This document shows positions 291 to 47,700 of a DNA stretch of 52,198 bases, piece after piece. Each line of letters starts with the position of its first letter. The stretch's first letter is position 1. The notes below the pieces were generated by a model, which saw only the letters and a list, made by a program, of their open reading frames with translations, made no database searches and was not told the DNA's origin. The DNA comes from Amoebophrya sp. A120 (lineage: Eukaryota; Protista; Dinoflagellata), in NCBI GenBank assembly GCA_905178155.1, contig CAJINV010000029.1:9911-62108 (forward strand), given 5' to 3'. The translations under genes were made by a program, and so were the position numbers.

Positions 291-1729
291 TCAAATACCG
301 ATCTTTTCCTGTGTCGTCGCTGCGGCCACACCACCAGGAGGCACGTCGGCCGTCGTCGGTGGTACCAACAAATTCGGTTGTTCTCGGTCTTGTGAACTAC
401 CAACTGCCGCTGCCGCCACACTTGTTTCGCTTTCCCCGTTCGTGAACAATTCCGGTACTATGTTCTGTTGCAAGTTCAACGTGCTCGTGCTCTGCTCGTG
501 ATTATTCCATGGGACTGGTCCGCTTTGGTGCGCAGGAGTCACAGCCGCTGCATATCAAGAAGAAAAATCCCCCCTCCCCATACCAAAACGAAAATCTGTG
601 ATGCAGATTTGTGGTCATAAATCAGCTTTCTCGTGCTAGAAGGACAGAGAGAGATGCGGAGCGTAATGCTGGCTTGCATGGGAAAGCCTTGCGCCTTCAG
701 CAGGACAGAAAACCAGTGAAAGTGGATAGCAGCATGACAAATTGCCTGCAAACGAGGCCGCAGCTGCCTCTCGTGGCCTTTTAGCACTGCAAGGCGATTT
801 TTGCACTCAAATACAGCATCACAAATTTCGTTTTCGATATGGGGAGGGGGGATTTTTCCTTTTGATACTGCAACGGAATCAGCTGCTCGTCGTGCTGCAT
901 CGGCCGGCGCAGACGTAGCTGTCATCGCCGCCGGGACGAGACTTGTTTCAGCCAGCTGGCCTTGACCAGATGCGGGGGGTCGGCTGCTGGACGAACTAGA
1001 ACTGGAGCTGGTCGTGGGGGCTTCCGGCTGTTTATGCTCGGTGAAATTATTATGACCACCTGCAATGTCAATTTGTTATGCAGGTATATATGCCTATTTG
1101 CCATGACAAATTCCATTTCGTGCCGTCTCAAGACGATCGTCTGCGACGAGTGCATGACAAATTGCCATCTCTCGTCGAGCTGGTACATTTATTTCCACCT
1201 GATACGACCGTCTCAGCGTACTTTGCCCTGCTTGTAGTCCCAGCGTGTCGACAGTTGCGGCATTACCGCCCGAGTGCGGCGCAGTTGTCGTCGCAACATC
1301 ATTGGGAACGTCGGTCCTCGCCACCCGCAGCTGCCGCTCGTCCTCCTTTTGTTTCTTCTCAAAGCACACCATAGCCGCTATGGCGTTCTCAAATGTTGCA
1401 TTCTCAACAGTTACATGATTTGCCATGCAAAACGAGCATCAACGTCCACATGGTGAAGCTACTGCGCATGACAAATTTTGGAAGGGCTAAACAGGATGAG
1501 AGCCTGTGCCGAATTTGTAATGCAAGAGTTGCAAGATCCGGCCTTTCTCTGTTGCCATTCTTGCATCGCAAATTCATGTAAGAACAGTTGAGAACGTAAC
1601 AATTGAGAATCCCATAGCCGCCTGCACGCAGAGCGCGTTCAGCTTCTTTTTCGCCAGCTTTTCGGAGTACTTCTCGGCGAGCCGGTCGAAAAGGTGCTGC
1701 ACATCCGGCGCGCGGATGTTGTTCAACAT
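291..1729 (-). CDS. Gene 1: hypothetical low-complexity protein (~232 aa), split by 3 introner-like elements
   Basis: Removing 1379-1616, 1033-1204 and 553-867 (+5 nt each) gives 699 nt in one frame: MLNNIRAPDVQHLFDRLAEKYSEKLAKKKLNALCVQAAMVCFEKKQ...QEKIGI*. May extend to 34 through a 57-bp mini-intron. True start uncertain. Confidence 0.6.
553..867. mobile_element. Introner-like element, family B
   Basis: TIR TATCAAGAAGAAAAATCCCCCTCCCCATA / TATGGGGAGGGGGGATTTTTCCTTTTGATA; TSD CTGCA perfect; frame restored. Confidence 0.92.
1033..1204. mobile_element. Introner-like element, singleton family I
   Basis: TATG...GATA, degenerate TIR, CATGACAAA boxes; TSD diverged but element+5 restores the frame. 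Confidence 0.75.
1379..1616. mobile_element. Introner-like element, family F
   Basis: TIR TATGGCGTTCTCAA / TTGAGAATCCCATA; TSD GCCGC perfect. Confidence 0.92.
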
Positions 1730-3773: not shown

Positions 3774-4041
3774 TATCAAATGTAAAAGAAAAAGTGTCTG
3801 GGTTTGGAAGAGTGCGCCATTTGTCATGCAGCTTTTCCATGACCCATGAAGCCTGGAATGCAGGACCTAGCATGACAGATTCTGCGCGATCTCTCTCATG
3901 CCTATCCTGCATGAGAAACTCCCTCCCGACTTGGTCAAAACGGGAAGACTTTTGGTACTCATGCAACACAGATTTTTGCACGCTTCAGATTTAGCATGAC
4001 AAGTTGCATTCTTCCAGACCCAGACATATTTGCAGTTGATA
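3774..4041. mobile_element. Family A element outside any reconstructed CDS
   Basis: TATCAAATGTAAAA..GTCTGGGTTTGGAA / TTCCAGACCCAGACATATTTGCAGTTGATA; no TSD (CCTTT/TAACT). Confidence 0.85.
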
Positions 4042-4420: not shown

Positions 4421-7400
4421 TTACTTCACCATTGGCGCGGGCTGCTTGCCGCCTGGAGTTGTAGGCGCAGAATATGGCGTTCTCAAACGTTACTAGTACA
4501 CTCTCAACCGTTACTGTTACATGAATTTCACATGCATATGCAAGAGATGAACAGCAACAGAAACAGTTATGTAAAGGGGCAAATCTTCGTTGATCATGCT
4601 GCTTTCGCATCACAGATTTGTTGGCACAGATTTGATTGCTGTTTAGCCCTTCGGAGATTTGTCATGCGAAATAGCTTGACTGTCCGGCGGATTGGGGTAG
4701 TTTTGCATGAGATTTCACGTAACATCAGTGGAACGTAACGCTTGAGAATCTGATACAGCAGGAACAGCTCCTAGTGTCACCTGCCGTCCCGTCACCGAGG
4801 GTTCTTGAGCCTGCGCTGCAGCGGACGACGACGAGATATGAACATGGCCGCTTGATGTTAAACCGCCGTGCTGCAACGTCGTGCTCGAGTCAACAACACC
4901 TTGTTGTTGATGTGGTACCACGGTCGTGCGACGCGTTTCCCTTGCGGTCATGAGGCGCTCACCAACGCGGGCGAAGGAGCTAGCCGAACTTTTGCTATAA
5001 GACGGCCCCTATGCATTGCAAATATGTTTGGGTCTGGAAACTTGTGATGCTAAAATGTGGACGATGGCAACACTTTTGCATGCAGCTCAGCATGACACCT
5101 TCCCAGAATGCTTTCTCATAGGAAGTCCGCATGAGAAACTGCGTTTTTGCATGACAAAAGTGGCTGCGTCCTTTGTTGCTTATGCAATACAGATTTCCCA
5201 GTAATGCAGAGCTAGCATTACAAGTTCCAATTTTCCAGACATTTTTGCAGTTGATAGTCCCGACCCCGAGGCCGCTGCCGTAGTGTTGCTCGAACCGGCA
5301 GACCGCGTACTTATCCAAGAAGAAAACTGTGTAGATGTAAGCCTGCAATGCAAAGTACGCAACACAGATACATCTGTCATGCTGGCCAGCCATGATGAAG
5401 TCCTGTTTTCATATGTTTTTTCTAGTACTAGCTGATGTGCATGACAGGTTTTGTTCTCTGTCATGCAGAGCAAATTTGTCATGCTGTCACTCCAAGACAG
5501 CTACACTCACCCAGTTTTTATCTTGCATAGTACTAGGCGTGTGATCAATGGCCGCGCGGGCGGAAAGTGGCGGGGGTGCCGAGGACAGCGAAGTAGATCC
5601 GGGTAGAGCAGCCCCTTGATGGCCGCTGGTAGAAGAGCCAGCCCCCAGTAGGGGGCCCCGGTGGTGCTGATGCCCCGTTCTGCTCGACGGCGTCACAGCT
5701 TGCGGTAGGGAAACTCCCCCCTGGTGTAGTTGCGCTTGCAGCTGCCCCGGAGCACTGTGGCTAGTCCCGCCCCGAGCTGCCGGCGAAGACGGGGCTCTCG
5801 CCGCGGGAAGAGGAGATGGAAAAATTGATGCTGGCGGTTGATGCGGCACCGCAACTGCTGCAGCGGGAGTTGCGCTAGATTGCTGGCTTTGAAGATGATC
5901 GCCCGTTTGGAGTCGGAGGGAAGATTCGGTTTCCCTGATTCCCCGCCCGCCACTCTCCGTCCTTGCCACTACACCTGCTCGTCCCGTGCCAAAATTATAG
6001 AGCGGATCCGCCGCGACTCTACTCGGAACTTTCGCCGGCGTGTTTATCTTGTAGTCCATCTGCATCGTCTTCAGGAGCTCCTTGTAATTTGACGTGAGAT
6101 GAAGACCCCCAGTTTTGCTATCTGCTTCCAAAGCCCCCGTGCTTGTGGCTGGGCGGTCGGAAACGCTACGGTGCCACAGAGTTCGAGCCATCGCAGCCTC
6201 CAGGGGGTCTTCCTCTTCTTGCTGCAGGAGCTCTGGGTCAACATTTGAAGCAACTTCCCCAGTAGGTGGACGTCCTCGCCCGTCCGCAGGTTGTTGGCGA
6301 CACGAACTTCTCGATCGCATCTGCAAGATTTCATCGGACATCGCGCGTGACCACAGGGGCCGCCCTTGTTCCTCTTCTTGTTCCCATTCGGGGGCAAAAA
6401 GGTCCGGTGACGCAGCTCCTGTAGTTGTCATCAACGTCGGGTCGGAAGAACTCAGCGGGGGAAGTTGTGGATCATGGTGGTCTATGGAGGATTGCAAATA
6501 TCCCTGGATGTCGAAAAACTTGTAATGCTGAATGGTCATGCTTGACTGTGCCTGTAAGTGCAGTGCAGCATGACAAATGTTTCAAACGCTTTCTCATCCG
6601 CAGAACGCATTACGAACTGCGCTTTTGCATGACGAACGTGTCGTGGCGCTCTATTTGCTGCTTATGCAATACAGATTTTTTAGGAATGCGGAACATGCAA
6701 TACAGGCTCAACCTTCCAGACTCAGACATATTTGCACTCGATACGGTGCTGCGCCGCCGTTTGGTTGATCTTGCCAGGAGGACCACCACCAGCATATTGA
6801 AGCGGAGCGCCGCCCGAAGTAGTTTTAGAGGCACTTCTACTGCGGCTCGCCTGCTGCTCCGCACTGGCATTGGTATTGGCAACTACATCTTCTGCACGAC
6901 TAGCGGTCTTGCCGAGATGAACAATTGGGTCCATAACAAGAGCAGGACTTTCATCTTCAATCGGAGCATTCCTGATGCAGACCTGCGCCAGTTGGTCGCA
7001 GAGTCCGGCGATATTATCAACTAGAGAAGAAGGAGCCTCTTCATGATTAGATTGCTGTTCTGGCGCAGGAGGAGGAGAAGTAGGTCCTGCAGCTCCTGTA
7101 CTATCGGATCCTGTAGCACAACAACCTGACGGTGTTTGATCGATCTTATCAAGTGGATCGCCAGCATGCTGCCGGTTATTTTGAGCGCCCGAAGTTCCAG
7201 AGGTACTTCTGCTTTGGCTCGTCTTTTCAGCCTCTTCACGCGGATGTTGCTGTTGCGCAGGAGGAGCTCCTGCACCTGTATTAGATCCTGTACCTGCAGC
7301 TTCAGTATGATTCTTACGGGCGGCCGTTTCTTGTTCATCATCTTTGCCGTGACGACGGGTCGACGACGTTCTTGGCGACGGTTCTTCACAATTACGCAGC

Positions 7401-10400
7401 TCAACATCCTCGACCCCAGACCGGTGTTCTATCGCAAGAAAAAACTGTTTCACTATGAACTTGTGATGCATAGAATAGAACGCAGAACTATTTGTCTTGC
7501 TACACCTGCAAGCTATTGGATTTTTAAGCGCGTTTTCCCTTGGAAAGCGCGCACGGCAAATTTTCTGTGTCATGTGTAGCAAACTTGTGATGCGGATCTT
7601 GCAAAACCATCACAGTGAAACAGTTTTTTCGTGGGATATGTTCTTCATCCACTTTATTCATTTTCGACGGAGCAGCTACAGGTGCCGGCTTTGCGTCCGC
7701 GTGCTGCTCTACTAGTGCTTGCACATCAGCGGAAGAAGTTTTTGTAGTGGTAGTTTTATTGTTCTTCCCACCTGCGGCGCCGCTCGTGGTCGACGTCCAC
7801 TTATCATCTACTATAGGATTGCCTGCTAGATCAAAAACCCGGACGACCTGCTGTCCCGGGTGGACACCGCGTGCTGTGTTCTATCAAATGCAAAAGCATC
7901 GTACTAGTATGAATTGCATGACAAATTTCCTCACCATGAGAAATGGAATTTGTAATGCTGATTGACATAACGAAAAAGATTTGTAATGCATAACTGCAAT
8001 GACTACGAGTACGAGACCTTTGCACTGGATATGTTCCTTGAACACGCAAGGTTCGTCCTGGACGCAAGGCTGTGCAGTATCCTGAGTAAAAACGTCCCCA
8101 CACCAGAGTTGTCATGCAGATTTGCCATGACAGGAACATTTGTGATGCGCAACCCCATGACAGGCATTTTCAATCGTGTTTGGGAACTTGTAATGCTGTA
8201 AACAGGATCAGCAGATCGATTTGTGACGCGGCTTTCCTTGCTAACTTGCACCACCTTACGGACTGAAACTTGTCATGCGTGACTCACAAAACTCCTAGGC
8301 TTGTGTTGCAAAATCCCCATCCTGAGACTGGTGTGGGTACGTTTTATTTTACTCAGGATATGCAGGTTTTTGTCGGTAAGAGGACTAGCGAAGGTTGATT
8401 GCTCTACTGGCCCTCGAGATCCACTGTCCGACCTCGGCTTGCTATGAGAGTGCACAACTAGAAGTACTTACCCCTCCCCATCATTTGTCTATGCAAAATA
8501 CAAAACCAACACTGTGCCTCTTTGCACTGTTTGCATGACAAGTTTTGGCATCTCAATGAATAGCACGACCAACTTCCTGTGCGAATTTCTCATGCAAAAC
8601 CTGCATTCTTGCTGACGCTTGTATTGCTGTTTATGCGATGCAAATGAGGGGGAGGGGGAGTAGTTGTGCACTGTCATACTTGAGCTGGTCCTCGTCGCCG
8701 ATATCTTCCTCGTCCAACATTGACTGTATCAACTGCAAATATGTCTGGGTCTTGTCATGCACGTTTTGCATGAAGCATGATCGGTCTGTGATGCATGCCC
8801 CAGCATCACTGACTCTTTGACCGCTTCTTGATGCCTCTTCCGCATGACAAATGCCCCTACGACCGCGTAGCAAAAGTTACATTCTCTTATTTGCTATTGC
8901 TGCTCATGCAATACAGAGTTTTCCGGAATTCAAATGCAGCATCACAAGTTCTTGCATTCTTCCAGACATCCAGACATATTTGCAGTTAATAGACTGGCCT
9001 GAAGAACGCACTCCGACGTCCCACAACTCTTGCACATCCTGGATGATGGTTACCTCGTTGCGCTATCGTGAGGAAAAATCCCCATTCCCTGTATCGAAAA
9101 GGAGATTTGTGATGCTGGATTTGAGTGCACAAATTTACATGTATTGCTAGAAGGCCAAGAGACGCAGACGCGGCCTCACTTGCAGGCAATTTGTCATGCT
9201 CTTTCCCGCTTCCAGTTGCTTCCTGTCATGCTGAAGACGCAAGGCTGACTCAGGTCAGCCAGCCCTACGGTCTGGATCTCTTTCGTTGTAGCATCACAGC
9301 GGGACTTGTGATCACAAATCATGCTACACAAATCTCCATTTGAGTATGGGGAGGCGAGGTAGTTTTTCATTGTAATATGCGCTCGTAAGAAGGACCTTCA
9401 TGATCGGGCGCGGCCCCCGCCCCGATTCCATTCGATCGGCCTGCATATGCTGTGCAAAAGCACCGCACTCGTAGTACTAATCGCATTCATGCATTGCAAA
9501 TCTTTTTATTCAGGTAAATCCGCATTACAAAATCCGTTTCTAATGCTGAGCAAATTTGTAATGCGATTTCTACTAGTACGATACTTTTGCAAGGCATACT
9601 GCAGCCCGGTCGGCAGTTCCCACGCTCGCGGACGACAGTATCCCGTTGCCACCTCCCGAGGAATCACCTCCAACCACACTCGTGAGCCGCATTCGCAACA
9701 TGGCCAGCAGGTCGTACCGCACGTTTTCCTGTCTCTCCCGGATATTTTCCCTCCGCTCGCGCCGCCGATCTTGCTCTTGCTTGGATCGTATCAAATGCAA
9801 ATATGTCTGGGTCTGGAAACTTGTGATGCTACAATGTGGATGATGGGAAGAGTTCCGAATGCAACCCAGCATGATAACTTTCCAGAACGCTTTTTCATAG
9901 GCAATCCGCATAAAAAAATGCGTTTTGGCATGTACAAAAGAGGCTGCGACTTTTGTTGTTTATGCAATACAGATTTTCTAGGTATGGAAAGATAGCATTA
10001 CAAGTTCCAACCTCCTAGACCCAGACATTTTTGCAATCCATAGATCGCGCCAGTTCGTTCCGCGCGACCTCCTGCACTGTGGTTTCTTGTTTTGTACGTG
10101 GACCAATAAATCTGGTTGCGTCGTCCTATCCTGAGCAAAAACGTCCCCACCCCAGAGTTGTCATGCAAATCTGCATGCCAAAAATGTTTCTCATGCGGAG
10201 CCCCAACATGAGAAGCATTTTCTATGCGTGTTTGGAATTTGTGATGCTATAATCAGCATGATATACTAGATCTAAGATGCTGCTGAACTACCTAAACAGG
10301 ATGACACTACGAGGACAAATTTGTCATGCCAAACGACCAAAGGTGGCTGATTTGTCTAGCAGATTTCCCATCTTGACTCTGGTGTGGGGACGTTTTTGCA

Positions 10401-13400
10401 AATAATACGACCACCGCGGAGGTCATCCCACTCTCTAGTGCTCCCATGATGCACACTATGCGTTGCAAAGCTGTCTGGGTCTGGAAGATCGCAACTTGTC
10501 ATGGTAATTCTGGATACTGCAGAAATCTGTGCTGCATGATTACCAAAAGCTGTCCACTTTTGACCAAGCTGAGAGGGAGCTTCTCATGCAAACGAGGCAT
10601 GATAGAGGTCGGGGAGATGAGTCTGTCATGCTGGGGCATGTATGACAGACCGCACGCACCATAGAAAACCTGCATGACAAGTCTTCCAACCTTCCAGACC
10701 CAGACATTTTTTTTGTATTTGATACACATTCCGTGGTTACAATTGTCGCTTCCATAGACTTATGAACTGCAAAAGCATCGTACTCGTATAAATGCATTAC
10801 AAATTTCCTTAGCATGAGAAATAAAATTTGTAATGCGGGTTCACCTTAAGAAAAAGATTTGTAATGCATGACTGCAATACGAGTACCATACTTTTGCACG
10901 GGATAACACTCCGGAATCCGCGCCGCCATTCGCTCTGCTGCCAGACAAAAAAGACCCGTTATCGTTCTCGTAAACGGTATGGAAGTGTCAGAATCGAAAT
11001 TGATAAAATCGAAAAACTTGTGATGCATAAAATCGATACCAGTTGGATCCTCAGTTTGCAAGCGGCGCATGACAAATTTCGGGAGCACCGAAATCCTGTC
11101 TGTCATGCTGTTTGAGCAAAGAAGACTGCTCCTGTCATGGTACTCTGGCAGCACATTGCATACCCCTAAACAGGCTTACAATCTGTCTCATTTGCCTGCT
11201 CCCCAATACAGGCCTCGAGTGCCCTACATTTTACGCATCACAAATTTTTCGATTTTGTCGATTTCGATCCTGACACATCCATAAACGGCGGTTCGGCTGC
11301 TCGCGTCGGAGTCCGATACTGTCTATCAAATGTAAAAATGTCTGGGTCTGGAAGAATGCAAGATTTGTGATGCAGGTTTTCCATGAGCCATGAGGTCTGG
11401 AATGCGAGACCCAGCATGACAGATTTTTTGAGGTCTCTATCATGCCTTTCCTGCATGAGAAATACCCTCTCAAGAATTTGGTCAAAAGCGGACAGCTTCT
11501 GGTACTCACGCAACACAGATTTTTGCATCATTCAGATTTAGCATGACAAGTTCTGACCTTCCAGACCCAGACATTTTTGCAGTGGATACTGTCATCTCGC
11601 TACTGGGGGTCTTCTTTTTGCGCCCACTGTGGTAGGTATGACAGTACACAACTCCTCCTCGTTCCCCCTTATTTGTATTCTGCATGAACAGCAACTATAC
11701 AGACACCCCCACCAGTGAAGCCTATGCATGACAAGTTAGTGTGCCTAGAGTAGAATAGTACTGTTTGGGCTTTTTCCGGAAAATTCTGTCATGCAAACAG
11801 TACCACGCAGCAGCGCTTGGATTGCAGATTTTGCATAACAAACGAGGGGGACGAGGGGGAGTTGTGCACTCTCATAGTAGGGATCTGGATCCGGCGGAGC
11901 CACAGCCCGGTCCTGTCGCGACACGAAGCTCCCTTTACTGCTCTTTTTACCGTCGCTGCCACCACTTTCCGGAGGCGTTGCGAGGAGACCCTGGTGACGC
12001 CCGCCTGGTCGTCGGGGGTGTTTCTTTTCATTTTCTCCTCCTGGTGTTCGTATGAAGTGCAAAAGTATCGCACTCGTGTAAATGCATATACAAATTTCCT
12101 CAGTATGAGAACTGAAATTTCTAATGCTGATCTACCTCAAGAAAAAGATTTGTAATGCATGATTGCAATACGAGTACGATACTTTTGCACAGCATAGCTC
12201 GCTGCGGCTGCGGCTGCAAGGCGAAGGACCGCGGTCCTTTATCGCGAGGAAAAATCTACTCCCCTCCCCATACCGAAAAGGTAGACTTTCGGAAATTTGT
12301 GATGCTGAGTTGCGGCCATAAATCGCGTCTGTCTTGCAAGAAGGCAACTCCGCAGGCTCAGCCGCATTGTGCAGGCGGTTTGTCATGCAGCTGGGCCTAC
12401 AGCGCGGACGTTTTTCATGCTAAACGCCTAGGCCAAAACCTCTCTACTGACACTTGGCATGGGCCTGCAGTCCTCTCCAGCAAGACAGCTCGGATTTGTG
12501 TACACAAATCCAGCATCAGAAGCTTCGTTTTGGTATGGCGAGGGGGGATTTTTCCTTTTGATATTCTTGACCGCCGGGCACCAGCTCGCGCCACCACCTC
12601 GGCGGGTCGCCTCCTATGCATTGGAAATATCCCTGGATGTCTGGTGGAAACTTGTGATGCAAGGAAGAGAAGAGTGAGCACTCTGTAATGCGCTGCACAG
12701 CATGGTGAGTTATTTTTCCGCGGTTCTGAGGTGCGTACTCCGCATGAGAAACTGCGTTTTTGCATGACAGGCGAGAGGAGCTCTTCGCGGCCACGCAATA
12801 CAGATTTCAGAGTCATACCAGCCTAGCATGGCAAATATAGGAATCTCCCAGACCCAGACATATTTGCATCTGATACCTTCCGAATGAATGCCAGCAAGGT
12901 TGTGGTCGCGCAAAGTGGCGTAGGCATTGTGCTTGGTGAGGACCTCGCTGGTGAGCCAGGGCTGCGCGAACTGGGTACCACTCGCAGCATATCCTGTGCA
13001 AAAGTGTCGTTCTCGTCTAGCAATCATGCATTACAAGTTTGTTTCTTCAGGTGAGTCCGCATTTTACAGATTTCATTTCTCATGCTGAGGAAATTATTTG
13101 TAATGCATTTATACGAGTACGATACTTTTGCACTGCATACAGCACCTCCACCAGACGAGCTTGAAGCTGAGGTGGTAGTTGTGCCACCACGACTATGCAA
13201 GAAAAAAACTGTGTAAGTGTAACTTTGTAGTGCAGAACATGCAACAGAGTTACACCTGTCATGCCAGACAGCCATGAAGTCGTTTTTTCATGTGTGTTTT
13301 CCCTTACAAGCCAGGCATGACAGGTTGTCGCTGTCATGTAGTGCCGATTTGTGATGCTGTCAGCCAAGAAAAGCTACACTAACAGAGTTTTTTTCTTGCG

Positions 13401-22356: not shown

Positions 22357-22599
22357 AGGGACTGCCTACCGGAACTATTTCGAGCTGCTGTGCGATTAGT
22401 TGCACTGCGCCAGATGTTGCTCTCGCTTGTTTGCAGACTACAAAAAAAGGCGAGCAGAGCCAGAGCCATCGATCTGCTCCAGAACACCCACGAAAAGCGG
22501 CATTTTATCGTTTGAAGCTCACGGGTATTGAGGCTTCTCTTGTTATTGGGAACTTAGGGCGGACAGTAAAGACGGTTGAGGCCGGGTGGCGAAAAGCTT

Positions 22600-33152: not shown

Positions 33153-36100
33153 TCACGCCTTTGTATCGCACAGAAAAAGCTCTTTCACTGTGACAACGTT
33201 AGAGCAGATCGCGCGGTGATCCCAACTTGAACTTTCGATCGATACAAAGAATTTCTATCTGGTCTCTGTAGCTGCTTTGGAGGGGCAAAAGCAAAATAAC
33301 CGTTTCCTAAAAATTCGAAAGCAGTAGCCACAGAGACAAATTTTCTTGTTGTGATACAACTATACTCTCCTGCGTGCTAGAATTTCAAAGTGAAACAGTT
33401 TTTTTCTGTGCGATAGCCCAACCATCGTGCCCGCTCCAAGGGCGGTTCCGGTCCTGCGGTGCGCGTGTTCTTATGACATGCAAATATGTCTGGGTCTGGA
33501 AACTTGTAATGCTGAGTTGTGAATAGTGAGTGCTCTGTAATGCACAGCCAAGCACGATAAATATTTGCGCGGCTACTTAGTGTTGCGCTTTCCGCATGAC
33601 AAACTGCGTTTTGCGTGACAAGTAAAAGGGTCTCTTCTTGGACACGCATGACAAACTCTTCAGTCATGCCAGACAAGCATGACAAACTTGCCAATGCGAT
33701 ATCCCAACCATCGTGCCCGGTCCAAGGGCGGTTCTGGTCCTGCGGTGCGTGATCTCCGAGTGCTCGTCTGCTCCTCCGCCTGTGTTGCTATGAATTGCAA
33801 AAGTATCCTATCGCACTCGTATAAATGCATTACAAATTTCGTCAGCATGAGAAATAAAACTTGTAATGCGGATTTATCTCAACAAAAGGATTTGTAATGC
33901 ATGACTGCAATACGAGTACGATACTTTTGCACAGGATAGTTGCTGCACGAGGACCATTGCTAGCACCATGCTGATCCAAGGGCGGTTCTGGTCCTGCGGT
34001 GCGTGATCTCCGAGTGCTTGTCTGCTCCTGCGCCGGTGTTGCTGCACGAGGATCATTGCTACCACCTCCACGCGGGGACGATGCTCTTGCCACAGTGCGC
34101 GAGGACTGCGACGGCGGCTCGGGGCCCGGAGTTCTCCGAGACGAGTGTCTGTTGATTTTTTCCGCATGAAAAGTTGTGCCGTGCGGGGAAATTGTAGCCG
34201 GATGGTGTGACGAAGAAGAAGTAGTTGCGGGCATAACTACACCGTCAAACCCATACCGATCTGGCGCCTCTTGTTGCTCGCGATGATTTGGGATTCCAGA
34301 TCGAAAAGCGGCAGAAACAGAAGGCGCCATGTTCATCCAGGCCCTAGCGGTACTATCACCGGGCTGCAGCTGCTGCTCCGCTGTTGTACTACTAGTACCG
34401 TGCTGGCCACCCTGCTGCTGCACATCTGTAGTGGTTGTCAGTGCTGCAGCAGTCGCTTGCTCGCTGACAGTTGTGGTGCGGCGCTGGCAGAAGCTCCGGA
34501 TGGGATTGGTGCGGCGAAGCGGATTGATGCCTGACGGATTGTTTGTCCTCGACGAAGATGTTTATCAAACGCGAATATATCTGACTGTGGAAGCTTGTGA
34601 TGCTGATTGGTCATTATTGAACCGCCTTGGCCTTCCTCGTGCAGCCAGGCATTACAAATATTTTGGGCGCTTTTGCATGAGCTTGCGTAGCGCGCATTAC
34701 AAACTGTGTTCTTACACAACACACACGGTCCTCGCGCTTCTATTCGTCATGCTCATGCAACACAGATTTTGTAAGAATTATCCAAGACATGAAATACAAG
34801 TTCAACACTTTTTCAGACCCAGAAATCTTTGCATTTGATAGTGGTGTGTTGACAGCGGAGGTTGAAGATGATGCCACTGCAGATGTAGATGCTGACGCTC
34901 CTGCAGAACAACAAGTGGGTAGCAAACCGCTTCGCAAGGTCCCCGTTGGAACTGGTACCGCACTGGTGATTCGTAGCAAGGCATTGCCCGTCGGATGTGA
35001 CATTGTAGGTGCTTGTCTTCTCGTCGGTGCCAGCATGACTAGTGGATGTAATGCAGTTCGGCCACTCGCAGGACGTTGCGGTGTCGGGATTGAGGACGGG
35101 GGGAGGCGAGCAGAAGCGGGGGCTGCATTTGCATTATTTGCGGGGGCCGAACTAGAACTCCCGTTGCTGTTCATCCTTGGGTGTGCTGGTGTTTTGGAAG
35201 AGGTCGACCACGTGTTGCAACCGCTGGAAGTAGATGTTGGTGCTGCTCCACCTCCTCCTGGTCTTTCGAGTCTCCCGTCACCTCGTCCTGCAAGCGTCGT
35301 TTGCAACGGCGCTGCTTCCTGTTCCGCCCGGGAAATAAAGTTGCTTCCCCGCTGGTCTCTAAAAGGCGCTGCCCTGGCGTGCGTTTGGTTGGACCACCCA
35401 CGCACCCACGGAAATTCCTGGTCAAGGTAGTCATCCAAGTCGTCAAAGTGTGGGAGTGTGTATGCATTGCATTTGCAAAAGCGTTCTTGTACAACTTCTA
35501 CAGCAATTAAATGCACAACTTGCATCATAATTTTTTTCAGAATTGGAATATGGATTTTGTGATGCAGATTCCGGTAAGAAAAAACCATCTGTCATGCACG
35601 ATTGCAATGTGCGAGTTGTACACAACTATTTTGCATAGGATAGTGTCTCGTCGCTTTTCGACTGCATCGCCACTTCAAACCGACGCTGGCGCTCTTTCCA
35701 AGGCAGACTATCGCAAGAAAAAACTGCTTCACTGTGACCTTGTGATGCAGAAAATGGATCACAGAGGTGTGTGTCATGCTACACATGCAAGACAATGGAT
35801 TTCTAGCTGTGTTTTCCCTTAGGGACCCCGCATGACAGATTTTCAGTGTCATGCGTAACAAACTTGTGATGCAGATTTTGCACAACCACCACAGTGAAAC
35901 AGTTCTTTCGTGGGATACAAACGGTCCGGCAAATAATCCTCGTACCAAGGGAGAGTCGGCTCTTCACGCGGGTTACTGTTGCTAGTATCGCCGGAGGAGG
36001 AGCTGCTGGTGGTTCCAGATGATCCTGATTCATATGAAGCTGGCTGCACGAAAGAAGTTGACGTGTCCGTACTAGTTGCTTGTCTTGAACTACCGACGAG

Positions 36101-36613
36101 TTCTTGAGCGCTTTGTTCCTCGTCCTTTTCACTTGTGCTTTTCTCTGGTGGAAGTACATGCGCAGTTCTGGGAACAAGAGGTCTCGGGTCTGGGCCCGGC
36201 GGTGGAAATTGCGAACAAACTGCAAGAACAGTGGTGCTAGCAACACGACTGCACGGAGGTGGACTAGGGCTGGCAGAGCTAGTACCGCTGCTTGCTGTAC
36301 TTCTAAATTTCGACAAAACACGTATACTTCTTGGAAATGCGTGAGGGCTGCGGCCTGATTCTACTCCCCGTTGTGATTCTTGTAGTACTGCCACCAGCTC
36401 TGACTCATCCACGCTGGCAGCGCGACTGCTTCCTGCCGAAGACGGCGAGGTTGTTGCCAAGAAGCTGCTTTTGCCTGGTGTCGTCCAACTACACGAAAGA
36501 AGAGCTATTGAGAAGATGTAGATCCGCGAGAATGTAGCGGATGTGGACCACGTTGAGGGCGCCGGATAGAACGTAGCCGGAACTACACCAGGGTGCCGAC
36601 GTGAGCTCGCCAT
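33153..36613 (-). CDS. Gene 5: low-complexity protein (~709 aa) with N-terminal hydrophobic segment and C-terminal RTAGPEPPL repeats, 6 introner-like introns
   Basis: 2130 nt in frame after removing six elements (+5). Ends RARWLGA*, matching the DPWLGA* end of gene 6. Confidence 0.8.
33164..33415. mobile_element. Introner-like element, family E (decayed interior)
   Basis: TATCGCACAGAAAAAGCTCTTTCACT / AGTGAAACAGTTTTTTTCTGTGCGATA; no TSD; removal gives the WLGA* terminus. Confidence 0.8.
33472..33701. mobile_element. Family A element with replaced or truncated right end
   Basis: Left A-type TIR; right end ...CAATGCGATA lacks the A TIR; no TSD; frame restored. Confidence 0.8.
33789..33938. mobile_element. 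Introner-like element, family C
   Basis: C-type TIR; TSD GTTGC perfect; empty site in the repeat unit at 34038-34042. Confidence 0.95.
34563..34840. mobile_element. Introner-like element, family A (diverged)
   Basis: Degenerate A TIR; TSD ATGTT/GTGGT; frame restored. Confidence 0.85.
35461..35642. mobile_element. Introner-like element, C-like
   Basis: TATG..TGCAAAAGCGTTCTTGTACAACT / AGTTGTACACAACTATTTTGCATAGGATA; TSD GTGTG/GTGTC. Confidence 0.85.
35709..35917. mobile_element. Introner-like element, family E
   Basis: E-type TIR; same 209-bp length as 7430; TSD CAGAC/CAAAC. Confidence 0.92.
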
Positions 36614-37049
36614 TTCTTTGAGAATGGCCGTCGTGCTGTCACCCCGTATTTGACTGGACGGGAAAGCGAAAGCGTATGGTGCGCGGAAGTTGGGCTAAAA
36701 AACGGAACGCAGGCGAGCCGCGGAAAGCAAAACCATTTACGGCTTCTGTCTGGGCCGGATGATCATTCGCAGTAGTACATGTGCCATAGCAATACTGCGT
36801 CTGAGGAATAGGCCATGTGGTTCAGATGGAGCCTAGAGTAGAAGAACATAAAGAGCACACCAGTATATTCATAAACATATTTCTGGCCCTGGCGGCGGCA
36901 AGACCGCGAAGACGTTGAGATGCGAGAGTTTTGAACGCAGACTTCAGCAGCCTCGCCACCACGCTTTCCATGGGAGATGAGCGGATGTAAATCTAAACCC
37001 ACAACTGCGCCAAGTGCCACATTTAGCCTCTATAATCTGGAGACAACAC

Positions 37050-39740: not shown

Positions 39741-41617
39741 TTTGCAAAAACAAAAACAAAATTAATTATGCATCGTATACTATAGTTACATTTTGGTACT
39801 ATCAAATTCCATCCATCATCACGCACCCAACCATGGATCACCGCTACTTTCCCCCGAAAACCCCAGCCGCGGCGTCTGCGCCGCTTTCGCCATAGGCCGC
39901 GGACTAGCGGTGCGAATGTTCGACGGCGCCAGACGGTTCACAAAGCTCCTCGCCCGGTTTTTCGTAGATGTTGTTGAAACACCAGCGGCAATGTTAATAT
40001 GGTTTAACACTCTGGGGCTACTGCTTGTCGAGGTCGTAGTTTCTTGTGCCGTGATTGGCAGAATTTTTCGTGTGAGCAGACGCTTGCTGTTGCCACACTG
40101 TGGATTGTCTGTTGTTGGAAATGGGTTGTTCGTAGTTGTGTCGCGTGGGTCGATCATGCCACCAGCATCTCTGCCAAGAAGATTTTTAAAACCACCATCC
40201 GTATTGGTTCGTTGTGAAGAAGAAGAACTTGAACTTGGCATAAAAGCCCGACGAGATTGTTCCTCGTGATTGAGATTCGGTTGCTGTTGTTGAAGCGGCG
40301 ACCCTGCAGTGGACGAAGCTGCAGAAGTGGACAAAATTGCAGTAGTACTAGTAGGTCGTGGTTGATTTTTTAGCATTTCCCTTCCGCCAGCCTCACCAAC
40401 GCTTGTTCCTCTCGACAAAATTGCAGTAGTACTATCTAGCACGGGCGGTCGCTCCGCGACCGCCGGAGAGGTATGGAGTAGACAAGGAAACGATGGGCCC
40501 GATTTCCTAGTAGGAAGGTTGCAGTCCTCGCGGGGAAGGGGAGGGGATTCTCCTGGGGGCGAAAACTCTGCAGGCGCAGGGCTTTTGAGTGCGCCGGAGC
40601 CCCCTGGAGGAAGACAAAGGCGTGACAGCGGCCCGCCCCAGGCCCCTGGAGAAGGAGAAGCACCGGGAAACCGAAAGAACACCCGGGGCGAGCCCACCCT
40701 GGGAGGGGACGAGCCTTCCGGGATGTTCCCAATTTGCGAGCACCCCCCCAAGTTGCGAGCCTTACGGGCGGCTGCTCGTCATTCTAGAGCTACGCCCCGC
40801 TGTATTTCTAGTTACGCCCCCAAGGCGGTGGGGCTGCTTTCGACGGAGCCCACAGGGCCGCAGCTGCGGAAAAGCTGCGCGACAAAAAACCTGGCCAGCC
40901 AGACAGGTGCAACCAGCCCAGGGGGACTAGGCGCACTGTGTGTGATGGCCATTCCTTCGGGGCAGCGAGAAAAGGCGCCGCTTTCTTTGCGCAGGGCGGC
41001 GGGGGCATCCACACGAGGAGGGGCCTCCGCCGCGAGGCAAAACGGGGTAGCCCAAACAAAGCGCAAAGCCATCCCGGGCACCGTGGCCGGGCCGGAGCTG
41101 CTAGTTCGCCTGCACCTGCGGGCGCAGCAGCACGCGCCGCGCCACCCTCGGTCAGATAAAGAAGCGCTCGCCCTCCCACGGCTGCACCCCCTTTTCCCGG
41201 GAACGAGCGCCACGTCCCGCGCGACCACACAGGTACTAATTGCTCGGCGCTAGTTTCTCCACAGGGGGCAAGGGAAGCCAGCAGCGCGGGCGAGCTTTGT
41301 GGCGCAAGCCCGGGGCGAACCACCCCGCGCGGCAGTTTTCTTTTTCTTTTTCTACTAGTAAGCTTTCTCCTAGTAAACTCTCTACTAGTACGCTTGCTAG
41401 TAGTTTTTTTGCTTGCTTGTCACGATAAGATTACTAGCAGCGCAGCCTACTAGTAAAATTCTTGGATTTTCCTTACTAGTAAGATTTTACTAGTAGAAAT
41501 CGGGCCATGCGTCAATCGATTTTCTTGCCGTATAGTATATAGGGTATTGTAGGTCGTGGTTGATTTTTTAGCATTTCCCTTCCGCCAGCCTCACCAACGC
41601 TCGTTCCTCTCGCCGTC
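39741..41617 (-). pseudogene. Element-free tandem partial copy of the gene 6 3' end and 3' flank, interrupted by a 1.1-kb GC-rich insertion
   Basis: 39741-40413 and 41549-41617 align with 41618-42821 but lack elements 41794-42049 and 42098-42332 plus one TSD each. Frame is still open to DPWLGA* at 39819. Confidence 0.85.
40435..41548 (-). mobile_element. 1.1-kb GC-rich insertion without TSD, Helitron-like 3' end
   Basis: Splits GTAGTACTA|GTAGGTCG of an 84-bp tandem duplication; perfect hairpin 40444-40464 followed on the minus strand by CGTG-CTAG; TACTAGTA-type repeats at 41350-41495. Confidence 0.6.
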
Positions 41618-41707
41618 TTTGCAAAAACAAAAACAAAATTTAAATTAATTATGCATCGTATACTATAGTTACATTTTGGTAATATAAAAGTAAAACTCCA
41701 TCCATCA

Positions 41708-44700
41708 TCACGCACCCAACCACGGATCACCGCCACTTTCCCCGGAAAAACCCAACCGCGGTGTCTGCGCCGCTTTCGCCATAGGCCGTGGACTATGAAA
41801 TGCAAAAATGTCTGGGTCTGGAAACTTGTGATGCTAAAATGTGCATGATGAAAACACTTCCGAATGCAGTCCGGCATGACAACTTCCCACAATTCTTTCT
41901 CGTAGGCAATCCGCATGAGAAACTGCGTTTTTGCATGACAAAAGAGGCTGCGACTTTTGTTGGTAAATATGCAATACAGATTTTCTAGGTATGGAAAGCT
42001 AGCATTACAAGTTCCAACCTTCCAGACCCAGACATTTTTACAATCCATATGGACTGGCGGTGCGAATGTTCGACGGCCCCAGACGGTTCACAAAGCTTAT
42101 GGGGCTCTCAAACGTTACATTCTCAACTGTTACATGATTTGTCATGCAAAAACACTATCACTATTCACACGACCAAGCCTGCCTTGCATGACAACTTCTC
42201 GACGCGCTACATAGCACTATAATCCGTCCCAAATCTGTAATGCAAAAGGCGCAATCTTCCTCCTGTACTTTTGCCACTCTTGCATTACAAATTCATGTAA
42301 CAGTTGATAATGTAACGCTTGAGAACGCCATAAAGCTTCTCGCCCGGTTTTTCGTAGATGTTGTTGAAACACCACCAGCAATGTTAATATGGTTTAACAC
42401 TCTGGGGCTACTGCTTGTCGAGGTAGTTTCCGGTGTTCTCGTGATTGGCAGAATTCGTGTGAGCAGACGCTTGCTGTTTCCAGGCTGTGGACTGTCTGTT
42501 GTTGGAAATGGGTTGTTAGTCGTTGCGCCACGTGCGTCGATCATGCCACCATGATCTCTGCCAATAATATTTCTGAAACCATCATCCGTATTGGTTCGCT
42601 GTGAAGAAGAACCACTTGAAGAACTTGGCATAAAAGCCCGATTTTGTTCCTCGGAATTGAGATGGTGCAGGTGATTCGGTTGCTGTTGTTGAAGCGGCGA
42701 GCTTGCACTGGACGAAGCTGCAGAAGTGGACGAAATTTTTGCAGTACCAGGTGTAGTTCGTGGCTGATTTTTTGGTATTTCCCTTCCGCCAGCCTCACCA
42801 ACGCTTGTTCCTCTCGCCGTCATAATCGCCAGCGGCTGCAAAACCCGTTTCCCGACCCGCGCCCAGGTGCTAGAAGTAGCCGACCGGGTTGGTGTGTTTT
42901 GCGACGCGGCGCTGTCTTTGCTTGTTCCCTGTCTTGTCGTACTACCAGAGGCCGCGTCGGTCGTGTTAGGAGTGATGTTGCGGACGAGAGCCGTCATTTG
43001 CGCAGGAGTCTTCCAGGGTTGTAACAAGCTACTAGTGGGGGCTGATGTAACCACGGAGCTTCCAATTGCATTACTAGCACCATTTCCTGACGAGCCGGAA
43101 GCTGCACCGTCCGAAGCTGCACCGTTTCCGTTCCTGCAGGACGTGACCGCGGCAAACCCAGAGCCGGCCACGACCGCACCAGTTGAGCAAGATGAGCCTG
43201 TTTGTAGTTGCCTGGTAGTTGAATTTGAAAACTGTATTTCCTTTTCAAACTCCAGCATCAGCGCCACTTCGCGTTCCGCCCGCGACGGCCTCGCGGGATC
43301 GTCCGCCGGCACTTTACGGTCGTGCGTGTCGTCTATCAAATGCAAATACGTCTGGGTCTGGAAGAATGCCAGACTTGTCATGCAGGTTTTCCATGACCCA
43401 TGAGCTCTGGCATGTAGGACATAGCATGACAGATTCTACTGTGAGGGTTCTATCATGCCTATCCTGCATGAGAAAGTGCCTCTCGATTAGGTCCATAGTG
43501 GACAGCTTTTGGTAATCATGCAACACAGGTTTTATTCACGCTTCAGATTTAGCATGACAAGTTGCTTTGTTCCAGACCCAGACATTTTTGCATTGGATAT
43601 CGTCCGTTGCGCCACGAATCCAGCCAAAGGTTTTTGCCAGGTCTTCGTCCGTTTTGCTCAGTGTGCTGTCATATGCATTGCAGATATGTCTGGGTCTGGA
43701 AGGTTGGAACTTGTCATGCTAAATCAGAATCATGCAAAAATCTGTGTTGCATGATTACCAAACGCTGTCCACTTTTGATCAAGATGAGAGGCAGTTTGTC
43801 ATGCAGGATAGGCATGATAGTGATCTCACGGAATCTGTCATGCTAGGCACTCCATTACAGATCATATGGGTCATGAAAAACCTGCATGACAAGTCTAGCA
43901 AAGTTCCAGACCCAGACATTTTTACAGTTGATATGTCAGCGTCTTGACTATCGGAATGAAAAGACGTTGCCGCATGCTGTACTGGTATTGGTAGCTGCAG
44001 TATCGTGTGTTTCAAATTCATCTCATTGGCTGCTGCACCCAAAGTTGTAGCCAAAGGGGGCGCAGGAACGACCTCTGCACCAGCCGCGCAAGGAGGCGTA
44101 GAATCATCGGTGCTACTGCTGGTCGCGAGGCCACGACTGCAACTCGCAAGGTGTCCTTTGACCGACGGTGGAGTTGTGCTCATCTGCTGCTCCAAACCTG
44201 TGTTGTTTTGTTCTTGCGGGGTCGAATTATAAGCTGATTCGTCTTTGCTCGTCGTCGTGGTCACTACACCGAGCTGTTGCACGAGGGTCGTCGTGTTCTG
44301 CACGTTCTTACCCATAGCCGCCTTTTCGACAGGGTGAATTGAGGATGTCTGTGTTGCAGGACCACGTTCACGGGACGACGCCGAAGATGCAGGTTGAAAG
44401 GGCGATGCTGACGTGAAAAACGCAGTGCCACTGGTGCTCGATGATGGGCCACCATAATTTCTCACACTCGCAGTAGAGATCCCACCCGTAGTTCCAGCTG
44501 CAACGGGCATTGCTGAAGACGATGATGGCGAAGAAGACTCCGGAACACGAACCGTTCGCAGATTGTAATTGATTTCCAAAAGTTTGGTTGCTTCCGCTAA
44601 AGCTGCAATTGACTGCTCCTCCTCATTATTTGCGTCATCATCTTCGCCAACATTCGCAAGACCTTTCACCTCCGCTGCACCAGCACGATGCGCAATAACA

Positions 44701-47700
44701 GTACTAGCTTGGTCCGAAAGTTTGCTGCTTTTTCCAGAACCAGTTGAGAATGGTGCTGTGCTTCTTGTCCACGCGCTTTGTATGCCAGTCTCGACTTTGG
44801 TCGACAGCGGTGAAGACAAGTCCTCGCTCGACAGGTTTAGTTGCGAAGAGCTGTTTTGTAAAGATGAAGAATCGCCTTCGCCGGAACAACCTGATAATGC
44901 CAGACAGTCGACGCCGTGAGTAGTTGTAAAATTCCGCCGGCCAACATGCGCGTCCTCAACAATTGCACCTTCCCCGCGACCAACATCCGTATTTTCAGGC
45001 AGCGCTCCAACGATCATTTCGCAATCGGGAACGAAACTGCTTCTCGCAGTACCACCACTGACCGCCGAGGCAGAAGTAGTTTTCGACCTGTTTCTAGTAC
45101 TATCGCCGCTGCTCTTGGAGTCGTGTAGTAGTTCCGTGTCATCGCCGGCTAACACGAAGGTGAAAGCGGAAGTGGTTCATCTCATTGGTTTACTGTAGTT
45201 GTTTTTGATGCCCGAATTAGAAAGAGCGTCACCGTGGTAATCCCCATCGCGGACATCATCTCCTGTCCGAGGCCCCGTAGCGGTGGACAAAACATTATCA
45301 AGAAAACTGTTGTAGCCAGCACTGGCCCCCGTAGCAGTATCCTGTTTTTTCCCTCCTCCGCCCCACGCCTGTTTTCGCCGCTGCGTTCCGGTCTCTACTT
45401 TGGTTGAGCTCGGCGACAACGGAGAGTATGGAAAAAGTGAGAAAAAACGTAGTTCGCATATAGCATTACAGATTCAAAACACGACGGCTGCATCGTGGAA
45501 CCAGAAAGAGAAAACAATTTCAAAAACATCATTGTCATTATGGTACGTGACATGCACATTCTCCTAAACCGCATCAAAGCAAACAGGTTTTTTACCTTCT
45601 TAAACACGAGGAGTCGTCCCTGGAACTATCGCTTGAGGAAGAGGGCGACGACGCCGTGCCAACGGTAAAAACATCATTCCGCCCTGGTTTGCAACCGAAT
45701 AAACCGGCTTGCTCTGGTACAGCCTCCATCGCAAATCCGCTTACTGCAGAAGACTTCGAACCTGCGCGCACTCCAGTTGTATCATGGCCGACCTGCTGTT
45801 GTTGCAGAGATGAAGACGCCTCGATGTAGCTATGGTTTGGTGCGCTGTGTTGCGGAGCAGCCAACACGTTGAGTGAAAACAAAACTTCAAGCTCTCGTGC
45901 ATCTTCTCCCAGCCCCGGAATGGAGTTGCCCAAAAGTAGCTGGCTGGCCGCTTCTGCGCGCTGCGTTTCGGTGGATGAGCTCTCTGTTGCAGTACCTGAA
46001 GACGACGAAGAGGTGGTACCGCTAGAGGAACTCGAACTACCCAAAACACTGGAGCAAGAGCCGCTCGAAGTGTTCATTTTACCATCATGATCATTGTTCA
46101 TCCCAGCAGCGTATCAAGTGCAAAAATGTCTGGGTCTGGAAGAATTCATGTTTGTCATGCTTGTCTGGCATGACTCTTAAATCTGTCATGCACGTTACCC
46201 AAAAGCTCCGTTTTTCTGTGATGCAGAAGCGCAGTTTGTCATGCAGAATAGGCAACACCAAGGAGCTCAGACACTTATCATGCTGAGCCAGCATTTGTAG
46301 CCTCATCATGAGACGCCACCCAGCATCACAAGTGTCCAGACCCAGACATTTTTCCTTTTGATAGAGTGCTTTGGCTTTGGCTTTCCTCCCCCCACGCCGT
46401 CCCGACGCCGGAACCGGGGGCGAGTCGTATCATGCGCGGAGCAGGTTGTCGGAGCAGAGAGGAAACGGCTTTGGTTCGTTGTTGTTCCGCAGCTGGCTGC
46501 AACACCATCGCCGGATTCGTAGTTGATCTGCCGAGCGGCGGAAAAGAAGTAGAAGAAGAGGATCCTTGTTTTTGCAACTGACCAACATGATCATGCGCCG
46601 CTTTGTTACTGCGTGAAAACGCCTCGTCCTCGGAAAGCCAGCGAGGTTCTTGCGAAGACGACGACCCAGAGGTTGCTGCGGGGACGGCTAACAAGCTCGA
46701 ACCCAGCATGACACCGGAGTTGACAGATGTACCTGATATACATTGCAAATAAACCAAAAGTACCTGATAGTTTTGCTTGGAAAAATACAGAATATTTTAC
46801 ATATATGCAAAGTGCTGCAAAAAGGCAAGCAAAAACTCTAGTAAGAAGTGCTGATTTACCGTATATACAAACTAGATTTTGATGTCACGGAGTGTTGCAA
46901 CTACTACGATTCATGCCATGCAACTTGCACAGAGGATACCTTTATCGTGAAGAGATGAACCAACTTCACCAACAGTGGTCACACCTTCGCTTTGCGCCCT
47001 GCTTTTGGCCATCGGTGTATTTTCGGTAGCTTGATTCACCACGACCCCCCGCTCTTGCACAGCACCTCCTCGGATCCATGTCAACACGGGCGCTGGCCTT
47101 TTTGCCAACGACGCACTGCGGAAGGTCGGTGCCCGGGGTTGGTGGGTTGGGGCTCGGGGTTCGTAGATTTTTACTGTCGCTGGGCCAGAGCTCGACGCGG
47201 AAGTTGTTGTTTCAGGTCGTCGGGTTTGGTCTTGATCGCTTTCCTCCACCGTTCTAAAACCAAAGTCCGTTGTTCTCCTCACCTCTGTCCCGGTAGAAAG
47301 TGCCGACGCTGCAGATTTATTTTCAATTCTCCTCATTTGTTCTTCACCCTCGGAAGAAAAATCGGCACGACCGGAACAAGGTCCTAAACTAGCTGGATGC
47401 AGGAGCTCCGCCTCCTCCATCGGCGCGGCGTATAGTGTCGGCGTGACCAGTTGGGGATTAAAAGATGATAATGTCGCAGTAAAATTGGATGTGGGAACAC
47501 GAGTGGGTCTACTTGTTCTAGTTTGTGTTGCGTAAACCAAATTTCCCTGCTGTCGATTGGTAGGCGCCACGCCACCTCCCGAAGATCCCCCGCCGAAGAC
47601 CGCTTGCTGCGAAAATTGGACCTGAGAAAAAATAACCTGACTTTGATTCACATTCAATGACGTGGCTCCTAAAAAGTGATTTTCTCCGGCGCCAACGCCG

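Follow-up and report, generated by a model that had tools for sequence, protein, structure and literature searches.

A conserved box shared by families of introner-like elements in the dinoflagellate Amoebophrya sp. A120

The stretch of DNA analysed here, 52,198 nt from Amoebophrya sp. A120 (assembly GCA_905178155.1, contig CAJINV010000029.1, positions 9,911 to 62,108; hereafter the window), is crowded with short inverted-repeat elements whose families differ in their terminal inverted repeats (TIRs) and bodies and share one internal box, TTGTNATGC. What does a box common to such families serve: the spread of the elements, their removal from transcripts, or no present function? Our analysis indicates that the box is under purifying selection, that the inserts are likely non-autonomous, transposon-derived introns of the Amoebophrya A120 type, and, with moderate confidence, that the box is the double-stranded-DNA binding site of one putative trans-acting mobiliser common to all families.

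The shared box and the elements that carry it

The window holds 102 matches to TTGTNATGC, against 2.37 ± 1.41 in shuffled sequence (n = 100). The centre base is C in 47, A in 28 and G in 25 of the 100 TTGT[ACG]ATGC matches, T-centred boxes being rare (2 of 102). Nearly all exact boxes (97 of 100) lie inside the 42 catalogued elements, which amounts to 9.7 boxes per kb within elements versus 0.071 per kb outside (97 vs 3 boxes), and two of the three remaining boxes are located in decayed relics. All 42 elements carry at least one box and 33 carry at least two, the nearest box starting 26–50 nt from an element end in 35 of them. The catalogue derives from a box-blind scan (TAT...ATA pairs, 5-bp repeat and arm similarity) yielding 39 candidates, which already contained 81 of the 100 exact boxes; four low-score rows were removed, leaving 35, and seven elements were added by inspecting leftover boxes, so that the box content of these seven is circular.

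The elements span positions 553 to 46363, measure 145–324 nt each (median 254 nt, 10,000 bp in total) and have TAT ends in 83 of 84 arms, partly by search design. Arm ends read TAT(C/G), then five variable letters, mostly G at position 9, and A at positions 11, 12 and 13 (68, 71 and 77 of 84 arms); 71 of the 84 contain AAA somewhere in positions 10–16. The flanks carry a 5-bp duplication (identity 0.87, versus 0.15–0.25 at lengths 3, 4, 6 and 7), perfect in 24 of the 42. A scan of metagenome contigs recovered 130 loci, all on JACKZZ01 contigs among those listed (80 of 130), which carry the same families as the window at up to 95% identity; in 357 elements from these loci, located without using the direct repeat, 5-bp flank identity reached 0.938 versus 0.24–0.27. 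With 214 distinct 5-mers among 302 insertion sites, the duplication shows no target preference. Empty sites are found within the window itself, in a local duplication (39741–40250 vs 41618–42640) of which one copy holds two elements and the other a single copy of each 5-mer and no element; the gaps equal the element plus 5 nt exactly, 261 = 256+5 for 41794..42049 and 240 = 235+5 for 42098..42332. TIRs, a constant target-site duplication (TSD), empty sites and a lack of coding capacity are the traits of miniature inverted-repeat transposable elements (MITEs), or non-autonomous TIR DNA transposons.

The number of groups among the 42 elements depends on the threshold (11, 9 and 7 at 65, 62 and 60% identity). 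An enlarged, box-blind catalogue of 311 elements (288 from the loci, 23 from the window; none after triplet shuffling) comprised nine families with at least six members, fam0 being over-represented since the loci were collected with its end pattern, and 302 of the 311 contained at least one exact box. Once boxes and 16-nt ends were masked, most consensus pairs became unalignable (below z 2.5); families 2, 4, 6, 7 and 8 remained similar (z 2.0–15), and the families are thus partly interdependent.

Most of what the initial annotation had described is borne out: a box shared across families and scarce outside them (equal frequency in flanking DNA, which it had named as a refutation, is not seen), a first box about 30–50 nt from an end, and an A-tract near positions 11–15. 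Its ten families with different TIRs come close to our 7–11 groups, and its other possible refutation, a single lineage for all families, is countered by the unalignable masked pairs, the kinship of families 2, 4, 6, 7 and 8 qualifying both statements. Several boxes per element is right for the 33 elements with two or more; the four boxes of 8078..8360 all point one way.

The elements are listed below, without strand; "repeat" denotes the 5-bp direct repeat, and "+5" that the element plus 5 nt is skipped in RNA-like contigs.

553..867: fam6 element (310-nt family), perfect repeat, 2 boxes
1051..1204: probable decayed element with an uncertain left end, 1 box
1379..1616: fam5 element (235-nt family), perfect repeat, 2 boxes
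3774..4041: fam0 element (260-nt family), decayed repeat, 2 boxes; skipped as 3770–4042
4473..4755: fam5-like element, repeat with 1 mismatch, 1 box; +5 in run X2
5010..5256: fam0 element, repeat with 1 mismatch, 3 boxes; +5
5312..5529: fam3 element (210-nt family), perfect repeat, 1 box; +5
6483..6743: fam0 element, decayed repeat, 2 boxes; +5
7430..7638: fam3 element, perfect repeat, 2 boxes; +5
7882..8031: fam1 element (150-nt family), perfect repeat, 3 boxes
8078..8360: fam2 element (280-nt family), perfect repeat, 4 boxes in a single orientation
8443..8678: fam7 element (220–240-nt family), repeat with 1 mismatch, 1 box; +5
8727..8991: fam0 element, perfect repeat, 3 boxes; +5
9064..9377: fam6 element, perfect repeat, 2 boxes; +5
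9446..9598: fam1 element, perfect repeat, 2 boxes
9789..10042: fam0 element, perfect repeat, 2 boxes; +5
10127..10407: fam2 element, repeat with 1 mismatch, 3 boxes
10457..10724: fam0 element, repeat with 1 mismatch, 1 box
10761..10905: fam1 element, repeat with 1 mismatch, 3 boxes
10978..11283: fam8 element (306-nt family), perfect repeat, 3 boxes; +5
11324..11588: fam0 element, perfect repeat, 2 boxes; +5
11637..11876: fam7 element, perfect repeat, 1 box and 1 T-centred box; +5
12051..12196: fam1 element, repeat with 1 mismatch, 1 box
12240..12563: fam4-like element (322-nt family), repeat with 1 mismatch, 2 boxes
12615..12875: fam0 element, repeat with 1 mismatch, 1 box
12990..13139: fam1 element, perfect repeat, 2 boxes
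13194..13403: fam3 element, perfect repeat, 1 box
14216..14477: fam0 element, perfect repeat, perfect 30-nt TIR, 3 boxes
19118..19270: fam1 element, perfect repeat, 2 boxes; +5
19701..19953: fam0 element, perfect repeat, 4 boxes; +5
21167..21460: fam0-like element, repeat with 1 mismatch, right end TAC, 2 boxes
28473..29013: probable decayed intron derived from fam1, tandem repeats inside, uncertain left end, 1 box
30571..30719: fam1 element, perfect repeat, 2 boxes
31213..31491: fam2 element, orientation opposite to 8078 and 10127, repeat with 1 mismatch, 4 boxes
33164..33415: decayed fam3-like element, TAT ends, no repeat, 0 boxes
33472..33701: fam0 element with altered right arm, repeat not matching, 4 boxes
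33789..33938: fam1 element, perfect repeat, 3 boxes
34563..34840: old fam0-like element, decayed repeat, 3 boxes
35461..35642: singleton element, repeat with 1 mismatch, 1 box
35709..35917: fam3 element, repeat with 1 mismatch, 2 boxes
39741..40250: paralogous segment with two empty sites, single copy of each 5-mer
41794..42049: fam0 element, perfect repeat, 4 boxes; missing from paralogous copy
42098..42332: fam5 element, perfect repeat, 3 boxes; missing from paralogous copy
43334..43599: fam0 element, perfect repeat, 2 boxes
43672..43933: fam0 element, perfect repeat, 3 boxes
46112..46363: fam0 element, repeat with 2 mismatches, 3 boxes

In the 150-nt family both terminal boxes face outward. 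Inside the probable decayed intron at 28473–29013, the segment 28534–28860 holds seven copies of a 13-bp tandem repeat together with two longer, GC-rich ones. Short exonic repeats at 33408–33470, 33697–33760 and 33975–34040 flank the altered element at 33472, possibly reflecting a local rearrangement. GC-rich blocks (up to 0.70) without boxes occur at 22600–24300, 37000–38400, 40500–41300 and 49000–51000, upstream of minus-strand genes and adjoining AT-rich blocks; they are possibly regulatory or another repeat class.

Removal of the elements as introns

The genes of the window run through the elements in five host reading frames, all on the minus strand:

4424..15785, minus strand: 1837 aa stop-to-stop, open only with element+5 removed at 24 elements
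18108..22365, minus strand: 1181 aa, through 3 elements
28926..32342, minus strand: 993 aa, through 2 elements
33380..36694, minus strand: 747 aa, through 5 elements
41711..45176, minus strand: 809 aa, through 4 elements

These open reading frames (ORFs) are reopened by removing the element plus 5 nt, the alternatives +0, 3, 4, 6 and 7 failing (+8 gives the same frame), and element+5 lengths are evenly spread over the three frames (14/13/15). The same removal of 28473–29013 would merge frames into one of 1450 aa. No Pfam family was found in the tested exon frames of the 4424..15785 ORF. In the contigs of runs X1–X4, at least 14 of the 27 elements of the covered stretch are skipped exactly as element+5, among the joints listed (15 of 27); with 3774..4041, which sits past the stop of the 4424–15785 ORF and is likely in a 3' untranslated region, exact skips total 15 elements, every one of those listed matching element+5. 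Run X5 keeps the exon–element junctions at about 23–31x and even depth, including across 16264–16924 (32x, vs 0.3 in X1/X2). In the RPB1 gene of one metagenome locus (L036), whose named best matches are apicomplexans and dinoflagellates at 60–64% with one EukProt match at 86%, all four TAT elements yield the peptide of the homologue only with +5 removal. The elements disrupt protein-coding frames, and contigs of probable RNA origin lack them with single-base precision; they are hence likely introns, a nature that the initial annotation had overlooked. Three further observations concern unusual copies: a 972-nt TAT element inside RPB1 (L036 5016–5987) is still compatible with +5 removal, another element (L036 6532–6771) is nested within a canonical intron, and X8, X3 and X4 carry an 87-nt half-element copy matching 11502–11588, from elsewhere, kept in expressed sequence.

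All 15 joints permit one cut register, 4 nt to the left and 1 nt to the right of the element on the plus strand. It is fixed by the joint 3769/4043, where the duplication has decayed and the skip 3770–4042 is unambiguous, and on the acceptor side also by an alternative joint, 4468/4775, whose donor reads C-TAG, 18 nt outside the element; this is an in-frame 306-nt skip in X1 (4469–4774) sharing its acceptor with the normal 288-nt skip in X2, while X3 and X4 contigs partly retain the same element, 4473..4755. In transcript sense the intron reads N-TAT(C/G)...ATA-NNNN. All 15 joints come from minus-strand genes, and we infer that the register is tied to the direction of transcription. The four canonical introns of the L036 RPB1 gene, a small sample, have the donors GTAAT, GTATA, GTATA and GTATA; TAT would thus occupy +2 to +4 as in host GTAT donors (3 of 4).

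The elements do not follow the GT...AG border rule of canonical U2 spliceosomal introns. Reading frames allowed 175 elements to be oriented (133 of 312 from the loci and the 42 of the window); under the 1/4 register, 46 of them have G at intron position +1 and 11 end in AG, and drift to GT or AG after insertion was not seen among them. A GC-drop heuristic for canonical donors was uninformative, with GTAT in 24 of 196 cases in sense and 21 of 201 in antisense. Branch-point and polypyrimidine roles of the box and the A-tract were also considered and found no support, the arms showing no asymmetry.

What the box is for

Substitution patterns indicate that the box matters. Among the 366 of 398 elements having three neighbours, the rate of private substitutions in perfect-repeat copies is 2.2% for box cores and 8.0% for the box centre, against 6.2% elsewhere, 9.4% at end positions 4–8 and 2.2% at A11–13; the box/other ratio is 0.35 (95% 0.30–0.42). 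The box is thus under purifying selection, conserved about three times better than other positions. In old copies (at least two repeat mismatches, n = 22) the absolute gain in divergence is similar for the box (+0.012) and other positions (+0.010), a pattern that release of the box after insertion would produce.

Box spacing is also shared. Same-orientation boxes lie 31–33 bp apart in seven of nine family consensuses (null mean 1.15), and none of 2000 best-window permutations reaches seven families with a shared spacing; three turns of B-DNA correspond to 31.5 bp. An opposite-orientation spacing of 46–49 bp in five of nine consensuses (P 0.003) was chosen post hoc, is uncorrected and serves as a lead only. 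Degenerate boxes in the consensuses tend to alternate in orientation in ~16-bp steps (opposite at 16 and 46–49 bp).

Within the 175 oriented elements boxes are balanced between strands (208 sense vs 190 antisense) and arms (80 in the 5' arm vs 79 in the 3' arm), and all nine families are inserted in both orientations. The 15 spliced elements can lack either sense form, GCATNACA being missing in three and TGTNATGC in one, and an RNA-strand-specific role of the box is disfavoured. Arm positions 4–10 show no covariation within copies (0.674 vs 0.677 permuted, n = 277), in a check that the initial annotation had itself proposed. It is because of this strand and arm symmetry, the spliced elements without sense forms, the similar decay in old copies and the absent arm covariation that we favour a double-stranded-DNA site used for spread.

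During spread, a DDE/integrase-type transposase making a 5-bp staggered cut would load on the boxes, arrayed at intervals of about three helical turns, and cut at TAT, end positions 4–8 and the box centre not being read. During removal, a modified, U1-less spliceosome would place its cuts by the element ends and not by the duplication, N-TAT(C/G)...ATA-NNNN setting TAT in the +2 to +4 register of host GTAT donors, and the TIR stem would probably help to join the two ends. Because one duplication copy would always be removed, insertion would be scarless at any site and in either orientation. The best candidate mobiliser class may be the integrase-like homology reported for A120 family 38 (PMC12130899).

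The strongest rival, which we nonetheless consider unlikely, casts the box as a signal for host splicing, to which a protein that possibly replaces U1 would bind, on the pre-mRNA in either orientation or on the DNA during transcription; carriers would survive in exons. The presence of at least one box in every window element agrees with this, as do a box private substitution of 2.2–3.4%, at or below the per-site mismatch of the duplication (6.7%), and the sense form GCATNACAA, which includes UNAC, a branch-like consensus core. In addition, U1 was reported as not detected in A25 and A120 (Farhat et al. 2021, PMC7789003). The lack of any 5'/3' or strand asymmetry, the spliced elements lacking either sense form and the equal decay of box and other positions in old copies argue the other way, and the four canonical RPB1 introns are boxless except within the nested element.

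Shared ancestry alone, with one ancestral element for all families and no present function for the box, appears improbable. Full consensuses of all 36 family pairs do align somewhat above shuffles (z 1.2–35), and the five related families resist masking; masking of boxes and ends, however, brings most pairs below z 2.5, the families differ in box number and orientation and yet keep the spacing, and substitutions accumulate about three times more slowly in the box than at neighbouring sites, its centre remaining free, a contrast that largely refutes this rival.

Equally improbable, in our view, is that box and TIR work by RNA pairing alone, a folded intron being cut at the stem base by a structure-reading nuclease or spliceosome. 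Folding of 102 elements predicts pairing probabilities of 0.8 for TAT with the terminal ATA, 0.88 for positions 9–30 and 0.35 for box cores with another box, and the 3770–4042 intron is predicted to fold at z -6.15. Against this stand the absent covariation at arm positions 4–10 and terminal box centres that would pair in 28 of 106 copies where 46 are expected, all five consensus boxes of fam2 in a single orientation, the 6479–6744 intron, skipped in three runs despite a folding score of just z -1.8, and the alternative donor 18 nt outside the stem. Left and right terminal box centres are anti-correlated (C with G) within families, which may reflect subfamily structure. The arm and box-centre results also bear on the proposal of the initial annotation that one trans-acting factor reads box and terminus while the TIR needs only to be self-complementary: box selection and cross-family spacing support its first part, and the self-complementarity clause fails.

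Finally, excision at the DNA level as for ciliate internal eliminated sequences, with skipped forms representing a somatic genome, is highly improbable: the RNA type of X1–X4 is guessed and X5 may hold skipped forms among 3068 joints beyond those listed, but X1–X4 have zero depth at 16417–16993 where X5 is even, partial retention and an alternative donor that shares its acceptor with the normal one are in keeping with RNA splicing, and published A120 introns are validated by RNA-seq (PMC7789003).

Several points weigh against a DNA-level mobiliser site combined with removal in a fixed register. Strand symmetry would be equally expected of a splicing signal working in either orientation; the old-copy test (n = 22) is small and cannot separate pre- from post-insertion selection; and the kinship of families 2, 4, 6, 7 and 8 turns "seven of nine" into about four of five independent groups, in layouts that include relaxed sites and a poor fam3 consensus. 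As to removal, the register is fixed by just two of 15 joints, one of them (4468->4775) with another donor, no G bias at intron +1 or AG bias at the intron end exists in the 175 oriented elements, and splice sites are called variable in the Fig. 3 legend of Farhat et al. (2021; PMC7789003). X1–X4 represent one sample of unstranded contigs whose RNA nature is guessed, and X8, raw reads recorded as RNA under the same species label, covered 4 of 30 bins, all element paralogues, with no unique sequence. No transposase came to light with Pfam in 24 window frames (none with a family), 136 locus frames (11 with a family, all housekeeping-type) or the five long elements, whose 43 frames gave no match above the curated cut-off. 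A search for long coding elements with the same ends had been recommended in the initial annotation. Likewise, no autonomous element with the same ends was found in the 52-kb window, the 444 kb of loci or the viral scans; the latter gave 0, 0 and 50 loci, mostly with 1–2 boxes and without BLAST similarity. Farhat et al. (PMC7789003) found no transposase in A120 and ruled out mobilisation by one, and the family-38 row shows no rve/DDE in the domain columns listed (PMC12130899).

The 50 viral-contig loci were rejected as chance matches, and three apparent long "elements" (1031, 2459 and 6197 nt) were discarded as composites or as ends paired by chance; elements of 457–972 nt resemble ordinary ones carrying inserted sequence. 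Rfam gave no match across the whole window.

Known systems and significance

In A120, introners have been described with an inverted repeat starting with TAT, then seven variable nt and at least three A, direct repeats of 3–5 nt, 5 bp long in the published example, and a length of ~240 nt; some 30,000 are present, and their mobilisation and U1-less splicing were left open (PMC7789003). The elements of the window share these traits (TAT, seven less-conserved nt and AAA, a 5-bp direct repeat, repeated families), as well as co-oriented genes and removal at non-GT-AG borders, the latter seen in 15 exact skips from runs assumed to be RNA. Their family lengths also match A120 rows in Gozashti et al. 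2025 (148–149, 208–209, 234, 252–261, 278, 305 and 319–322 nt; PMC12130899). Likened by motif and family lengths, they are very probably A120-type introners. Elements and terminal spacing are therefore already published; the cross-family box, its phasing, the cut register and the absent arm covariation appear to be undescribed cis-anatomy. The introner text of PMC7789003 describes neither box, spacing nor fixed register, and the box, like the register, the spacing and the absent covariation, was not found in the texts searched (PMC7789003, PMC12130899, PMC11282704 and the A. sp. Kv preprint, figures lying outside the search). TTGT/ATGC had no match in the supplement text of Farhat et al. 2021, and a literature search on box strings returned unrelated papers only.

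The combination of ends and TSD fits no named superfamily, as the initial annotation had stated, and published A120 families are mostly "TIR DNA, Unknown" (among 51 of 58 rows; PMC12130899). Family 38 of that set, "TIR DNA" with "5-bp TSD, TA/TA termini", ~810 nt long and with ORFs homologous to Copia/Gypsy sequence, resembles our elements in its 5-bp TSD, whereas such homology was not found in the five long elements here. A 5-bp duplication could plausibly arise from integrase-type DDE chemistry, as in Ginger1 and Ginger2/Tdd (Bao et al. 2010, PMC2836005). Ginger elements have mostly 4-bp TSDs with sequence-biased targets, and TDD-4/5 a 5-bp TSD; the unbiased 5-bp TSD found here fits the TDD length only, and Ginger membership was rejected on the termini, TAT(C/G) instead of TGTNR. 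Arabidopsis Emigrant/Lemi1 MITEs, whose subterminal motifs are cooperatively bound by transposase (PMC1636448), are likewise short, non-coding TIR elements with repeated internal motifs; they are pogo-type, have a known partner transposase and are not introns, whereas the present box spans largely unalignable families. The MITE-derived introns of Fritillaria borealis (PMC11282704) are also transposon-derived and removed by an altered spliceosome, with borders mostly AG-A(N); here the border dinucleotides vary with the target site.

A bolder extension, which we regard as doubtful, unites all TAT introner families in one unclassified transposon superfamily whose hallmark is the phased TTGTNATGC array and not the TIR; the same box-binding factor, or a domesticated copy, would also mark inserts for a U1-less spliceosome that measures its cuts like a ruler, 1 nt ahead of TAT and 4 nt beyond ATA. 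If true, a single cis code would serve both spread and scarless removal at any site and in either orientation. A box common to all families provides bait for the mobiliser, and autonomous copies can be sought with it as a motif. The fixed 1/4 register would reduce the reported splice-site diversity to a rule, T at +2 and A at +3, with the remaining border letters derived from the duplicated target, and would correct gene models. An insert removed scarlessly from any sequence, in either orientation, would moreover be a useful genetic tool.

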